DNA of 62,003 bases from a virus (taxonomy: Duplodnaviria; Caudoviricetes). The notes beneath the pieces were generated by a model. It was not told where the DNA came from. It worked only from the letters and a program-made list of their open reading frames with translations, and made no database searches. This document shows, piece by piece, positions 52,043 through 60,821 of this stretch. Both the position numbers and the translations under genes were made by a program. The stretch lies in IMG/VR virus record IMGVR_UViG_3300031707_000016, positions 1 through 62,003 of that record; one strand, given 5' to 3'. How positions within the stretch are numbered: the stretch's first letter is position 1; each line of letters opens with the position of its first letter.

Positions 52043-52116
52043 TGGTGGAGCCAAGGGGAATCGAACCCCTATCCCATCACTGCCAGCGATATGTCCTACC
52101 GTTGAACGATGGCCCC
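52043..52116 (-). tRNA. tRNA-Ala(GGC)
   Basis: G3:U70 pair, loop CTGGCAG, ACCA. Confidence 0.93.
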
Positions 52117-52208
52117 ATGTCAGCGGAACGTGCCCGCCGATTTGATTCACAACACTCTAAGGTGTTGGAGTTCCGGCTTCTTTATACACCCGCCTCCCGG
52201 TGTTAATT

Positions 52209-52282
52209 TGGTGGAGCTGAGGGGAATCGAACCCCTATCTACGCAGTGCAAGTGCATCGTCCTACCGTTGAACGACAGCCCC
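52209..52282 (-). tRNA. tRNA-Ala(TGC)
   Basis: G3:U70 pair, loop CTTGCAC, ACCA. Confidence 0.93.
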
Positions 52283-52291
52283 GAAAACAAC

Positions 52292-52380
52292 TAGATGCCG
52301 CCTTTATAGTCAGCGTGACTCCCCTTGCGGGAATTTAGGTTTGCTTATTAGGCAAATATTTGTGTTGCAGTGTGCATCTA
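52292..52380 (-). ncRNA. orphan structured RNA
   Basis: Terminal TAGATGC/GCATCTA; hairpins TTTGC/GCAAA, TTCCC-GCAA-GGGGA, GTCA/TGAC. Confidence 0.5.
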
Positions 52381-52387
52381 AAAAAAG

Positions 52388-52460
52388 TGGTTGCGGTCGC
52401 CAGAATTGAACTGGTCCCTGACCTTATGAGAGTCATGTGCAGCCATCACACTTCCCCGCA
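52388..52460 (-). tRNA. tRNA with CAT anticodon (Met-type) and atypical acceptor stem
   Basis: TGACT-CTCATAA-GGTCA; T loop TTCAATT; acceptor TGCGGGG/GACCGCA with 2 mismatches; ACCA. Confidence 0.75.
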
Positions 52461-52527: not shown

Positions 52528-52986
52528 TCAAGAAGAAACGACGTATTTCTTGTATTCGTCTTGAGAAAACTTCTCAATACCCCGAAGCGCACTTGAACTG
52601 ATGTGCCGAAACTTTGGGTCGCAATAGAATGCCAAAATTTTGATGCGGGGATACATTCCCCGCAGAAACGCCACGATGTTTTGCTCGTAATCCAAGTCCG
52701 CACCGTTACGCAATCCACGAACCAGCGTCACATTGTATTGTTCTTCTTGCTGCTTAATCATATCAATCAGCAAGGTGTCGTATGAAGTTGTTTTGACTCC
52801 GAGGGAATCCTCCAAAAACTTCACCGGCAAAGGATACCGAGAGGCGATTTGATTTGCCTTCTCTGGATTTACTCCCTTGGCGACCAACACATGGTCAAAC
52901 ACCTGTAATGCTTGATTCACGATGTCCAAATGACCTACATGAAAGGGGTCAAATGAACCGGCATACAATCCTAATGTATTTATCAT
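52528..52986 (-). CDS. coaD: phosphopantetheine adenylyltransferase
   Basis: YAGSFDPFHVGHLDIV, NPEK, LVRGLRNGADLDYE, ISSSALR. Confidence 0.88.
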   Translation of the reverse strand: MINTLGLYAGSFDPFHVGHLDIVNQALQVFDHVLVAKGVNPEKANQIASRYPLPVKFLEDSLGVKTTSYDTLLIDMIKQQEEQYNVTLVRGLRNGADLDYEQNIVAFLRGMYPRIKILAFYCDPKFRHISSSALRGIEKFSQDEYKKYVVSS

Positions 52987-53033: not shown

Positions 53034-53438
53034 TTACCACCACAGATGACGGAACCACTTGGAAAACAAGTCCATACCTTCTTGGTATCGTTTCCAGTTT
53101 TCGGTCTGTACTTCCTCTGAGAGTCCATCATACTTATCCTCCTCATGGTTTAGTGACCAGTCAAAGGCGAAAATCATTTTGTCCAACATTGCTTCCCACT
53201 TATGTTCATCAATGTCTTCCCAACCACCGGGAAATCCGTTGTGGAGTTCACGGAAGCGAATGAGGCGAGGCAAGATGAACTGGCAGATAACCGAATCCAG
53301 TGACCACGTTTCTGCATCGGAGAACCCATTCTCCTTCAGCTGCTTAACGTGGCGAGCATATCTCTTGTCTGTCTTTTCAACATAAAGAGGCTTTTTGAGA
53401 GACCAATCACTCGTCAGTTTTCTACTCAACTTTTTCAT
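53034..53438 (-). CDS. phage hypothetical protein
   Basis: ETWSLD...PRL..F...G.P...W...LDKMIFAF...EG.DLF.KWF..LW pattern common in large phages. Confidence 0.75.
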   Translation of the reverse strand: MKKLSRKLTSDWSLKKPLYVEKTDKRYARHVKQLKENGFSDAETWSLDSVICQFILPRLIRFRELHNGFPGGWEDIDEHKWEAMLDKMIFAFDWSLNHEEDKYDGLSEEVQTENWKRYQEGMDLFSKWFRHLWW

Positions 53439-53884
53439 AGTTTATCCCATACGATGCGAAGAGACTCGTCGGCAGTCAACCCCTTGGTGTCAACGCAGAT
53501 GAAGTTCTCGGTGGGTTCTTCAAAATCATTCCGCTTAAATTCTTCACGGACATGAGCACCGGAATTTACCACGAGAATTTCACGGACGTTTTTGTTGCGG
53601 TTCTTAAATTCTTCCCTCACGGCACGGTCAGAGTTTACGGTGGAAACAATAACGGAGACGCCCTGATTATCAACATGTTCCACAAATGTCTGCAACTTGC
53701 GGGTATTACTGTCCCGATATTCTTTGGTGAAATGTTCTTGGTGATACGTGCCTCCGAAAATACGGCGCAAATCATCGCCATCAAGATGAATGGATGGCAT
53801 TCCGGTTGCATCAAACTGCGACTTGAGTTTCTTTGCCAATGTGGTCTTACCACAACCTGCTTGTCCGATGAACCAGTATATCAT
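53435..53884 (-). CDS. adenylylsulfate (APS) kinase-like P-loop kinase
   Basis: IYWFIGQAGCGKTT, HLDGDDLR, FEEP. Confidence 0.75.
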   Translation of the reverse strand: MIYWFIGQAGCGKTTLAKKLKSQFDATGMPSIHLDGDDLRRIFGGTYHQEHFTKEYRDSNTRKLQTFVEHVDNQGVSVIVSTVNSDRAVREEFKNRNKNVREILVVNSGAHVREEFKRNDFEEPTENFICVDTKGLTADESLRIVWDKL

Positions 53885-53897
53885 AACATTTTTAGAG

Positions 53898-53971
53898 TGG
53901 TGGAGCCGAGGGGAATCGAACCCCTATCTAGTCAGTGCGAGTGACCTATCCTACCGTTGAACGACGGCCCC
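53898..53971 (-). tRNA. tRNA-Ala(CGC)
   Basis: G3:U70 pair, loop CTCGCAC, ACCA. Confidence 0.93.
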
Positions 53972-54210: not shown

Positions 54211-54296
54211 TGAGGTAGGTAGTGCGTTTCTGAGTTAACAGGGGGGTCTGCACCAAGACTGCCCTTACGGAATCCTCCTATCGGGCACCTACCTCA
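54211..54296 (-). ncRNA. orphan structured RNA directly 3' of the RNase P RNA
   Basis: Perfect 10-bp terminal stem TGAGGTAGGT/ACCTACCTCA; internal GCCC/GGGC and GTCT/AGAC. Confidence 0.55.
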
Positions 54297-54302
54297 TTAT
54301 GT

Positions 54303-54633
54303 ATTTGTCGCAGCCGTAGCCGAGGTTCTGTTCTATTCTTACATTTATCTCACATTGTTGATGGCGTGGTGAAACCAAGAACCGAACGGCCATATATCAC
54401 CTTTAGGCACTAAATGGTCCATCAACTCCGTGCCCACGATTAACCGTGGGTGCCCCAACCCGAGCGTTACAACGATAAGCACTAATCTTTGCTCTGTTTG
54501 GGTTACTCCTAATTTGTGGTATTAACGTGGATTTTGATGTCCACTCCCAATCATCTGCTTTGGAGGCTCGAACTTCCTCTACATGCTCTTTCAATCTGTA
54601 ATAGCACGCAGCGTAAGATCGCTTACGACAAAA
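54303..54633 (-). ncRNA. rnpB: RNase P RNA-like gene with reduced specificity domain
   Basis: CR-I GAGGAAGTTCGAGCCTCC, CR-IV AGATAAAT, CR-V AACAGAACCTCGGCTAC; P1 TTTGTCG/CGACAAA, P2 CTTAC/GTAAG, P4 CGAG/CTCG. Confidence 0.85.
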
Positions 54634-54635
54634 TC

Positions 54636-54645
54636 TCAAAGAACT
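54636..54645 (-). promoter_or_regulatory. boxA-like antitermination element
   Basis: AGTTCTTTGA immediately 5' of the rnpB-like gene. Confidence 0.5.
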
Positions 54646-54654
54646 GACAATACC

Positions 54655-55032
54655 TTACACTGTCGGCGGCGAATTGTCAACAACTTTTGTTGGAGGAACA
54701 ATTTCCTTGGTAGGCATCTGCCCAGCCGCTAGTTGTGCCATCTGAAACTCGTAGTTCAACTGCGTTTCGTTGTCCTTGGACTCGGCAAAGCGTTGAACTG
54801 GTTTCATCAAACTGAATGCCACGAGAATATAGACCCATTCCTTTGGTGGGATAACCAATGTCCCGGTTGAAATGGTGAGGTATGTTGCCAACGCCATAAA
54901 CGTGGCAATGACGATAAATCCTACGATGCGTGAATATGAAAATGACGGAGGCTCCGTGGCATCTAGGAACATTGACCATAACGCTGGTGCCTTTGGTTTG
55001 GCGGGCGTAAGACTTTTGATTTCTTTGCTCAT
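54655..55032 (-). CDS. small membrane protein, holin-like topology possible
   Basis: MSKEIKS start after late motif at 55037; two hydrophobic segments. Confidence 0.6.
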   Translation of the reverse strand: MSKEIKSLTPAKPKAPALWSMFLDATEPPSFSYSRIVGFIVIATFMALATYLTISTGTLVIPPKEWVYILVAFSLMKPVQRFAESKDNETQLNYEFQMAQLAAGQMPTKEIVPPTKVVDNSPPTV

Positions 55033-55066
55033 ATGGTATAAATATACCAAGTATGGGCAAATGACA

Positions 55067-55411
55067 CTAATCTCCCCGCTTAAAGCGGTCAATATCGTCT
55101 AAGATCTTCTCACGGTCATCCCGATATTGTTTGACGATGAATGTAAACCCCACTTTATCAACATCCTCCACCATTTCGTCACAAAAACGAATGATGTCTT
55201 CGTCCGAGGGTTTCCAATCAAATTCCTCACAGACTGCGGCAATGTTCTTGCCTTTCTGACTCATGTTGAATGCAGAGGACACCATACCCAATTCCTCAAG
55301 TTTGTCGAGGTAGTTGATGATAACCATCACAGAAATCATCTGCGGGTTTTCCAACCATCCTTTCGCCTTGAGACGTTCAACAATAGCGGTAAACTTTTCT
55401 TCGTTCGTCAT
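55067..55411 (-). CDS. hypothetical protein
   Basis: MTNEEKF start downstream of a TTGACT...TACACT promoter. Confidence 0.65.
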   Translation of the reverse strand: MTNEEKFTAIVERLKAKGWLENPQMISVMVIINYLDKLEELGMVSSAFNMSQKGKNIAAVCEEFDWKPSDEDIIRFCDEMVEDVDKVGFTFIVKQYRDDREKILDDIDRFKRGD

Positions 55412-59757: not shown

Positions 59758-59967
59758 TTATAGTGTCGCTGATGGCTTCCATTCGGAACGTGTAAAATAG
59801 ATACTACTATCTACAAATGGATTCCCATTGACAATCGGGCAATACTCTCCATTTATTCCTTGCCATTCCAAGACTTCAAACACGGTTCCTCTTGGAATAC
59901 GTGCATAATTATCGAGTTCATTGAACTGATAATCTTCTAACAATTCAATTTTTTTAGGATCGTTCAT
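59758..59967 (-). CDS. small hypothetical protein
   Basis: MNDPKKIELL..., ATGA overlap with the iscU stop. Confidence 0.6.
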   Translation of the reverse strand: MNDPKKIELLEDYQFNELDNYARIPRGTVFEVLEWQGINGEYCPIVNGNPFVDSSIYFTRSEWKPSATL

Positions 59968-60356
59968 TTTGACAATTGTCTCTTCTTGTAATCTTCCAAA
60001 GCAGCTTTCAGTGCTTCCTCGGCAAGAACCGAGCAATGGATTTTTACTGGCGGCAGACCGCCCAAAGCATCAACAACTTCTTGATTGGAAAATGTTTCCA
60101 TTTCCTCAATGGTGCGCCCCTTAATCAATTCCGTTGCCATTGAACTGGCGGCAATCGCCGACCCACATCCAAAAGTTTTGAACCGAGCATCTTGAATTCT
60201 CCCATCTTTTACCTTGATGGTTACTTTCATGATGTCACCACAAGCAGCTGCACCCACTTCTCCAATACCATCGGCATCCTTGATGTCACCCATGTTACGT
60301 GGATGCAAGAAATGGTCCATTACGGTATCATTATACAATGTGTAAGTTTCGCTCAT
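59964..60356 (-). CDS. iscU: Fe-S cluster scaffold, IscU/NifU N-terminal family
   Basis: DHFLHPRNMG, GAAACGD, FKTFGCGSAIAASS, LPPVKIHCSVLAEEA (three Cys and the LPPVK chaperone motif). Confidence 0.92.
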   Translation of the reverse strand: MSETYTLYNDTVMDHFLHPRNMGDIKDADGIGEVGAAACGDIMKVTIKVKDGRIQDARFKTFGCGSAIAASSMATELIKGRTIEEMETFSNQEVVDALGGLPPVKIHCSVLAEEALKAALEDYKKRQLSK

Positions 60357-60363
60357 ACTAAAT

Positions 60364-60449
60364 TGGTGCTGGTGGAGGGACTTGAACCCACAATGCCTTT
60401 CGGCTCTACATTCTGAGTGTAGCGTGTTTGCCAATTACACCACACCAGC
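60364..60449 (-). tRNA. tRNA-Leu(CAG)
   Basis: CTACA-CTCAGAA-TGTAG; variable arm GCC-GAAA-GGC; ACCA. Confidence 0.93.
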
Positions 60450-60736: not shown

Positions 60737-60821
60737 TGGTAGCACCGAACGGATTCGAACCGATAAAGGATGACAAGTTCTAAGCTTGTTGCTTGTGCCA
60801 GCTTCGCTTATCCACGGTGCC
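60737..60821 (-). tRNA. atypical tRNA-Leu(TAG)
   Basis: ACAAG-CTTAGAA-CTTGT; TTCGAAT; ACCA; no variable-arm hairpin; insertion after the acceptor stem. Confidence 0.75.

Follow-up and report, generated by a model that had tools for sequence, protein, structure and literature searches.

A probable class-A-type RNase P RNA with a shrunken specificity domain in a phage tRNA gene array

The viral record IMGVR_UViG_3300031707_000016 (Caudoviricetes), whose whole stretch of 62,003 nucleotides (nt) is called the window here, carries a gene for a structured RNA at positions 54304-54632 of its minus strand. This locus probably specifies a phage-borne form of ribonuclease P (RNase P) RNA of the bacterial class A type, a reading to which we give a probability of roughly 0.8 from comparative sequence analysis; the RNA appears to keep the whole catalytic domain together with a shrunken specificity domain (S-domain). 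The catalytic-domain elements that are kept comprise paired regions P1 to P5, the P4 and P6 pseudoknots, P15 to P17 with a GG-U motif, P18, and conserved regions (CR) CR-I, CR-IV, and CR-V. RNase P RNA is usually seen as a ribozyme for housekeeping in cells. What was observed here is the homology and fold of the RNA, its conservation, the genomic setting, and its occurrence in RNA libraries, and the gene is a genuine one for a structured RNA that is conserved.

The window, a record of 62 kb that is an estimated 18% complete, encodes a T4-like portal as well as baseplate-wedge proteins and tail fibres. Its minus strand carries all long open reading frames (ORFs) and an array of 14 tRNA genes (51.9-61.4 kb), inside which the RNA gene lies, in ∼680 nt without a convincing ORF between an ORF ending at 54655 and a tRNA-Ala gene at 53971. 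A protein-coding reading of the locus (ORFs 54403-54639 and 54345-54482) was dropped because homologues show covarying pairs and indels of arbitrary length. A sequence-only reading of the window had proposed a phage RNase P ribozyme with ends at 54303 and 54633, in agreement with the P1 ends derived here, and its three motif blocks are found on the minus strand in the 5'-to-3' order it gave: GAGGAAGTTCGAGCCTCC (54579-54562), GAGATAAAT (54351-54343), and AACAGAACCTCGGCTAC (54332-54316).

Two flanking proteins led to related phage contigs, where the homologous stretch is ∼66 to 81% identical. A degenerate pattern of the block comprising CR-IV, the P2 3' strand, and CR-V matched 26 viral contigs, and in 34 of its 35 occurrences the CR-I motif lies 156 to 325 nt upstream, a co-occurrence far beyond chance; L028, which lacks it, is truncated by the end of its locus. 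L028 and L043 (which has no 5' anchor) were left out of the alignment, and the 33 copies reduced to 20 distinct sequences, all from viral contigs and 56 to 98% identical in pairwise comparisons; the window and locus L048 are 71% identical over 270 aligned columns. A profile search added a divergent member, L015 (E 4.8e-32). A second lies in LR756508.1, a deposited, unannotated 484-kb uncultured phage that presumably formed part of a huge-phage survey; its portal is 47% identical to that of the window, and its RNA can be aligned to the family, with P4 re-coded and P18 missing. RNA length ranges from 242 to 410 nt across the family, with compact members of ∼240 to 250 nt (L012, L014, L026, and L048) and 226 nt in LR756508.1.

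The motif block of the family, with the P2 strand left open, had no match in representative genomes, one each, of 185,579 bacterial and archaeal species, and blastn against deposited phages returned nothing for 551 nt of the window or, at E ≤ 1, for the L053 RNA. Among cultured relatives, neither Microcystis phage Mel-JY01 nor Flavobacterium phage immuto_3-5A gave a match to RF00010, the Rfam class A model, at E ≤ 10, and the CR-V pattern was absent from both. Exact-string scans of viral contigs with an 18-mer from CR-I and a 17-mer from CR-V hit 10 loci, none with both motifs and all in unrelated, apparently protein-coding sequence, and were set aside as chance.

An RNase-P-type pairing scheme (P1 to P7 and P15 to P17, including the P4 and P6 pseudoknots) was placed on the 20-sequence alignment, using only helices in well-anchored columns. 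Standard pairs fill 94.6% of 1176 cells, compared with 79.0 ± 0.7% in shuffles, of which none in 500 reaches the observed value, and sliding the 3' partners by 1 to 3 columns drops pairing to 27 to 46%. Changes on both sides occur in 33 of 59 pairs (shuffle mean, 22.2), and the covariation score is 0.456 versus 0.163. Helix by helix, pairing is 100% in P2, P3, P5, P6, P7, and P15, 98.1% in P4, 92.5% in P17, 87.6% in P1, and 81.8% in P16. L015 and LR756508.1, which were not used to derive the scheme, form P4 (8/8 pairs), P5 (4/4), and P6 (4/4) with new pair types, and P2 is wholly re-coded in L015.

The P4 helix, which joins the CR-I and CR-V strands with one nucleotide bulged, is a signature of RNase P. 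Four of its eight pairs change on both sides among the 20 homologues, and the bulged nucleotide is U in 21 of 22 sequences, so the P4 of the sequence-only reading, with its bulged U, is upheld by covariation, as are its P1, P2, and P3. GAGGAA.UUCG within the CR-I-like block is invariant across the 20 sequences, and the block formed by CR-IV, the P2 3' strand, and CR-V is the most conserved of the family. Compensatory changes in P6 were seen in L026, in L015 (AACU/AGUU), and in LR756508.1 (4/4 paired, three pairs changed). The P15-P16-P17 arm is 48 to 50 nt long in all 20 sequences; two P15 pairs are altered at both partners, and all 20 share the GG-U that precedes the 3' strand of P15 (G184, G185, and T186). 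In RNase P RNA, GGU in the P15/P16 internal loop pairs with the 3' CCA of tRNA. The coordinates of all elements in the window are collected in Table 1.

Table 1. Elements of the RNase P-like RNA in the window; "changed" counts pairs altered on both sides among the 20 aligned sequences
Element	Positions	Strand	Details
P1 5' strand	54621-54632	-	pairs with 54304-54314, one bulged A; 11 pairs, 5 changed
P2 5' strand	54613-54618	-	pairs with 54337-54342; 3 of 6 pairs changed
P3 hairpin	54581-54609	-	3 of 4 pairs changed; 12 to 65 nt long in the family
CR-I-like block AGAGGAAGUUCGAGC	54566-54580	-	includes P4 5' strand; bulged U at 54572
P5 5' strand	54562-54565	-	pairs with 54506-54509; 3 of 4 pairs changed
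P6 pseudoknot 5' strand AGCA	54556-54559	-	pairs with UGCU in the P17 loop, 54478-54481; 1 pair changed
P7 and residual S-domain	54511-54555	-	3 bp, 54553-54555/54511-54513; conserved frame and variable hairpin 54527-54544
P15-P16-P17 arm	54454-54502	-	P15 5' strand 54497-54502; P16/P17 54462-54494; GG-U 54458-54460; P15 3' strand 54454-54458
Extra hairpin between P15 and P18	54433-54450	-	6 bp here; mostly 7 bp and a 5-nt loop in relatives
P18 (CAC/GUG base)	54351-54432	-	window-specific ∼70-nt branched insert at 54357-54426
CR-IV-like GAGAUAAAU, P2 3' strand, J2/4 joiner, CR-V-like AACAGAACCUCGGCUAC	54316-54351	-	P2 3' strand 54337-54342; P4 3' strand 54318-54325
P1 3' strand	54304-54314	-	pairs with P1 5' strand

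Per-sequence folds place two adjacent hairpins between the P15 3' strand and CR-IV in 19 of the 20 members, with stem sequences that differ; in L050 the first stem folds as 2 bp only. The second hairpin occupies the P18 position and in relatives has 5 to 6 bp, with a GNRA loop in 13 of the 20. The large branched insert that the sequence-only reading saw at P18 is present in the window: it measures ∼70 nt, is closed by GTTGATGG/CCATCAAC (54426-54357), and is missing from 18 of the other 19 sequences. L031 (10151-10591, minus strand) carries a ∼100-nt P18 insert at the same site, unrelated in sequence to that of the window. P18 appears to be a tolerated site of expansion.

Landmarks of Escherichia coli rnpB (M1 RNA; NC_000913.3) succeed one another just as those of the phage RNA do: CR-I at 61, GGAG-CAA-GGCC at 243, GGGUAGGCU at 291, CR-IV at 328, and CR-V at 347. 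From the 5' side, both RNAs have P1, P2, P3, CR-I with the P4 5' strand and its bulge, P5, and the P6 5' strand; these are followed by the P5 3' strand, three joining nucleotides, P15, P16/P17 (whose loop holds the P6 partner), and GG-U before the P15 3' strand, and on the 3' side by P18, CR-IV, the P2 3' strand, ACAGAA, the P4 3' strand, and P1. The phage RNA differs from the cellular class A rnpB in being phage-borne, in the replacement of the S-domain (P8 to P14, CR-II, and CR-III) by 34 to 161 nt, and in its extra hairpin between P15 and P18. CR-I reads GAGGAAGUUCG in the phage RNA and GAGGAAAGUCCGG in E. coli, and the length of 242 to 410 nt compares with 377 nt. Within the bacterial classes, P6, P16, and P17 are class A features, and at E ≤ 10 nothing matched the class B model (RF00011); the position of the hairpin between P15 and P18 is, we presume, that of P15.1 in class B RNAs. 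The stretch ACAGAGCAAAG of the window resembles the E. coli CR-II region, but it belongs to the P15/P16 strands, which covary, and relatives do not conserve it; we regard the likeness as coincidence.

Two relatives are matched over the full length of RF00010. L048 aligns to model positions 1-367 with 45.9 bits (E 1.7e-11 when 21 kb were searched and 6e-12 for 7.4 kb), and LR756508.1 aligns at 76010-76235 on the plus strand (L059 1501-1726; 226 nt), again to positions 1-367, with 49 bits and an E value of 7.9e-15. The L048 alignment agrees with our helix map at P1/P2, P3, CR-I, P5, the joiner J5/15, P15, P16/P17, GGGU, P18, CR-IV, and CR-V. In it the Rfam consensus GAGGAAAGUCCGG falls on the CR-I-like block and CGGGUa of the model on CCGGGU, and the most conserved block aligns to AGAugAAUG and ACAGAACCCGGCUUA of the model. 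The consensus structure (CS) line of the model marks no P4 or P6 pseudoknot pairs, so covariation in these two helices looks additional to the model score. Homology to class A RNase P RNA is thus carried by comparative structure together with these two significant matches, and the claim that the phage carries a homologue of RNase P RNA is supported by the covariation, the E. coli landmark order, and the full-length matches.

The S-domain is drastically reduced, as had been claimed from the window alone. In the alignment of the class A model to L048, 140 S-domain model positions are covered by 33 nt, and the 3-bp P7 encloses 39 nt in the window and 34 to 161 nt across the family (52 nt lie inside P5 in the window). 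Each of the three P7 pairs is formed in 20 of 20 sequences, and the middle one shows four pair types. The register of the class A model, with 16 to 20 of 20 paired, was rejected in favor of this one. A different P7 had been proposed in the sequence-only reading (TTGGG 54550-54546/CCCAA 54502-54498, enclosing 43 nt); its second pair forms in only 6 of 20 sequences, and CCCAA pairs instead with a downstream TTGGG (54458-54454) in 20 of 20, with compensatory changes and at the position of P15. That helix is therefore wrong, and with it the count of 43 nt.

What remains of the S-domain is one hairpin of 13 to 140 nt, set in a frame of 21 nt that hardly varies. The long hairpins are extended or branched folds with mutually unrelated sequences, and L048 and L032 are near-identical except for this hairpin. 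We considered the long hairpins as relict S-domains and rejected the idea; their sequences are unrelated, and their carriers L032 and L037 are not recognized by RF00010. Recognition of substrates independently of the tRNA elbow is possible; the near-invariant frame that persists may still contact the elbow or act as a receptor for the P18 loop.

Same-strand tRNA genes lie within 1.5 kb of the RNA gene in 19 of 20 loci. In several they abut it: a tRNA-Gln gene ends ∼3 nt before P1 in L029 and L033, a tRNA-Ala gene starts 1 to 2 nt past P1 in L032, L037, and L048, and in LR756508.1 a tRNA-Ser gene starts 2 nt downstream of the RNA. No sigma-70-type promoter or intrinsic terminator flanks the RNA gene on its own strand. 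With tRNA genes abutting and no promoter or terminator of its own, the RNA would fit a model of cotranscription with the tRNAs and release by tRNA processing. In the window, all 14 tRNAs called by ARAGORN have a GTTCRANTC-type T-loop and the D-loop GG, and 13 of 14 encode the 3' CCA, to which the invariant GG-U appears matched. The proposal of an RNase P suited to "remodelled" tRNAs finds no support in these 14 canonical-looking tRNAs, 13 with CCA, which speak against it. That no rnpA lies in the window is correct, as judged by the absence of a Pfam Ribonuclease_P (PF00825) match at E ≤ 1, and no RnpA (PF00825) was found in four related contigs of 86 to 251 kb, up to 74% complete. Because no phage RnpA was found, the protein partner, if there is one, is presumably the host RnpA or another protein.

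Contigs from three metatranscriptome runs, from three studies, map to parts of 54304-54633. One contig of run X21 spans 54363-54513 with two differences and covers the window-specific P18 insert, and the X15 contig, from a library whose type was guessed as RNA, spans 54531-54744 and crosses the 5' end of the RNA. RNA-library contigs end or join at 54633 and at 54304/54308: an X21 contig runs from 54330 to 54308 and then directly from 54633 to 54508, joining the 3' end to the 5' end, and an X24 contig links 54304 to 54633 through three additional letters. These end-joined contigs, from two studies, hint at a circular or end-joined RNA, or at a library artefact; depth is low, one side of the X21 joint has 23 nt, the libraries may hold DNA, and reverse transcriptase may have switched templates. 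Tandem genes are not seen in known relatives, since the profile search found a single copy of the RNA per locus. RNase P RNA isoforms that are circular have been reported in bacteria, according to a 2025 preprint (10.1101/2025.06.30.662392). No RNA-library contig covers 53800-54269, and none of X20, X21, and X24 covers 54646-55200; uncovered parts carry no evidence.

Both flanks of the RNA gene hold further conserved sequence. Directly 3' of it, at 54212-54300 on the minus strand, lies an element of ∼90 nt with a long outer stem that covaries in relatives and a conserved inner hairpin, (G/U)CCCGAWAGG....CCKUAAGGG (minimum free energy z-score, -2.25). It occupies the site of the abutting tRNA-Ala in other members, and in L017 and L013 ACCA comes right after its stem. 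Such an element could serve as a processing signal or minihelix substrate, or form a small RNA in its own right. Immediately upstream of P1, at 54634-54643 on the minus strand, the motif GTTCTTTGA(A/G) is common to the window, L017, L027, L014, L011, L016, L044, and L015 and is missing from members whose 5' end adjoins a tRNA. A processing site, or a promoter element of a type not yet known, would be possible readings.

Several observations weigh against the RNA being an RNase P RNA or limit what can be claimed from it. The window copy has no RNase P match from Rfam at the gathering threshold and none to RF00010, RF00011, or RF02357 at E ≤ 10, and a 20-kb scan added none at E ≤ 10. RF00010 recognizes only one of 11 family loci (L048) and leaves the window, L047, L032, L043, L037, L012, L014, L026, L050, and L029 unmatched; both positive scores, 45.9 and 49 bits, do not reach half of the gathering score of 100 bits. 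G001 and G002 gave no RF00010 match either, although G001 contains the family member L015. CR-II, CR-III, and helices P8 to P14 are not identifiable, and LR756508.1 has C at the P4 bulge in place of the U of the other 21 sequences. An RnpA gene was found neither in the window nor in the four relatives, all of these records being incomplete (18 to 74%). The RNA-library contigs have a low depth (∼4 to 12), come from libraries that may contain DNA, and stem from runs chosen because they hold this stretch.

Short sub-range scans with Rfam are unreliable as negatives, for the 45.9-bit match of L048 was lost with 301 bases and found with the whole 7.4-kb locus; the negatives for the window rest on the gathering-threshold, E ≤ 10, and 20-kb scans. 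The covariance-model search suggested in the sequence-only reading thus came out negative for the window copy and positive for the relatives L048 and LR756508.1 alone. By the features of class A, the RNA has the CR-I, CR-IV, and CR-V blocks in canonical order relative to E. coli rnpB and the model, the long-range P4 helix with its bulge, the P6 pseudoknot that links the P5/P7 joiner to the loop region of P17, and the P15/P16 GGU; it is without an S-domain of P7 to P14 with CR-II and CR-III and stays under the 100-bit gathering score. With one of 11 loci recognized and both scores far under 100 bits, it does not count as a member by the curated threshold.

The failure of every curated RNase P model on the window copy, and of RF00010 on 10 of 11 family loci, would be expected of a structured phage RNA unrelated to RNase P, its likeness due to chance or convergence. 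We consider this very improbable, because the three motif blocks are arranged and paired with one another over long range as they should be, P5, P6, P15 to P17, and P18 are at their expected places, and two relatives independently give significant full-length RF00010 matches. If homology is granted, the RNA might still be a noncatalytic mimic, a sponge for host RnpA or pre-tRNAs that re-routes or shuts down host tRNA maturation during infection. S-domain loss and the weak model scores agree with such a role, as does the failure to find a phage RnpA, given that any protein partner must then be that of the host. Yet the nucleotides invariant in the 20 sequences are those of the catalytic core (CR-I, CR-IV, CR-V, the P4 geometry and bulge, and GG-U), and a block in 5' maturation would harm a phage that encodes 14 or more tRNAs in the window alone; a mimic thus seems unlikely to us, if less so than chance resemblance.

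A slightly better candidate, still improbable, is an active RNase P that acts mainly on substrates other than tRNA, such as polycistronic transcripts or hairpin and tRNA-like elements, for example the hairpin just 3' of the gene. The domain that binds the tRNA elbow is lost, and such a task would need no elbow recognition; moreover, a long hairpin 3' of the RNA is conserved in the window and several relatives at the site taken by a tRNA in others, with ACCA after the stem in L017 and L013. Against this, the near-universal embedding of the gene in tRNA arrays and the CCA encoded by 13 of the 14 tRNAs point to tRNAs as the main substrates, and the two roles are not exclusive.

For the preferred reading, a phage RNase P RNA that acts on tRNA precursors, we infer the catalytic activity and its protein partner, which substrates are used, and how they are recognized as follows. 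The ribozyme RNA would be cotranscribed with the surrounding same-strand tRNA genes and excised by ordinary tRNA processing. Because a tRNA abuts the RNA in several relatives, the RNase P cut at the 5' end of that tRNA would also create the 3' end of the ribozyme itself. The RNA would then fold with its ends paired in P1, most likely recruit host RnpA, and remove the 5' leaders from the many pre-tRNAs of the phage. A pre-tRNA would be held mainly through its acceptor stem and through pairing of its encoded 3' CCA with the GG-U loop, in place of the contacts to the T-loop and elbow that a full S-domain would make. A wider proposal, which we put forward tentatively and hold to be rather doubtful as a whole, is that large phages carry a self-contained ribozyme for tRNA maturation, the smallest bacterial-type RNase P RNA (226 to 250 nt where it is most compact), freed from the tRNA array by the very cleavage that it catalyses, at least partly circular, and recognizing its substrates elbow-free through CCA and GG-U.

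Natural loss of the S-domain has a precedent in Archaea. Type T RNase P RNAs lack most of it and combine this, like the phage RNA, with a conventional catalytic domain; an earlier Rfam group model missed them because the S-domain is mostly lacking (PMC3579882). Type T RNAs have an archaeal type A catalytic domain, a 3-bp P2, no L18 loop, and several archaeal proteins, whereas the phage RNA has the bacterial features of a P15 loop with GG-U, P18 with GNRA, and P6. RF02357 gave no match to the window RNA at E ≤ 10 and no first-look candidate, and the two reductions look independent. Bacterial RNase P RNA stripped of its S-domain retains substantial activity, and engineered E. coli constructs likewise consist of the catalytic domain alone; these are laboratory deletions (PMC5839562) with reduced efficiency, whereas the phage RNAs form a natural, conserved family with an S-domain remnant and P18.

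Diverged RNAs below the Rfam thresholds that called for manual refolding are also described from bacteria of the candidate phyla radiation (CPR) and from Mycoplasma fermentans, some of them without P12, P13, P14, or P18 (PMC8172020). By that account they are cellular, essential, and single-copy and keep part of the S-domain, of which the phage RNAs lose nearly all; GG-U is missing in about two thirds of the CPR genomes (23 of 35) and kept in most phage RNAs. Theta ribozymes, of the hepatitis delta virus (HDV)-like type, are phage-encoded as well and lie beside phage tRNA genes; they are small and self-cleave in cis (PMC10879173), whereas the RNase P type acts in trans, with multiple turnover, on tRNA 5' ends.

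The tRNA array holds other RNAs and small genes. In L029, 2039-2422 on the minus strand is a genuine transfer-messenger RNA (tmRNA; 124.7 bits, E 2.6e-48), ∼1 kb from the RNase P-like RNA, which suggests that these phages bundle several translation-related RNAs. The "tmRNA" called by ARAGORN in the window (52043-52418, minus strand) spans two tRNA-Ala genes and is probably an artefact of tRNA-Ala-like ends; the Rfam tmRNA model scores the three tRNA-Ala genes of the window at 33 to 38 bits, under its gathering score of 47. Between two tRNA-Leu genes, a weak match to the tRNA model (60740-60808, minus strand; 22.4 bits, E 1.2), not called by ARAGORN, may be a degenerate or unusual tRNA-like element. 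Small protein genes within the array (52528-52986, 53435-53884, and 59964-60434, minus strand) encode a cytidylyltransferase-like protein, a P-loop kinase of the adenosine phosphosulfate (APS)-kinase/zeta-toxin type, and a protein with a NifU-like N-terminal domain; homologues of the P-loop kinase mark the same neighbourhood in 15 related contigs.

A literature search on RNase P and phages, in which supplements and most subscription journals were not included, brought up no publication on an RNase P RNA encoded by a virus, and a prior report is possible. In the main text of a huge-phage survey, "RNase P," "ribonuclease P," and "ribozyme" do not occur, and supplementary tables (PMC7162821 and PMC8172020) might list noncoding RNAs of huge phages. 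The spread of such RNAs in viral and metagenomic data is probably underestimated, because the curated models miss them (one of 11 loci recognized). As a family of phage RNase P RNAs, they would add an enzyme of tRNA 5' processing to the translation functions that large phages bring with them. They would also offer a natural, evolution-tested minimal RNase P of the bacterial type for structural and mechanistic work on the need for the S-domain, with compact members short enough for direct synthesis and assay. If the reading as a minimal RNase P is true, the S-domain would be dispensable in vivo in the bacterial lineage, and phages would have gained processing that escapes or withstands host control of rnpB.

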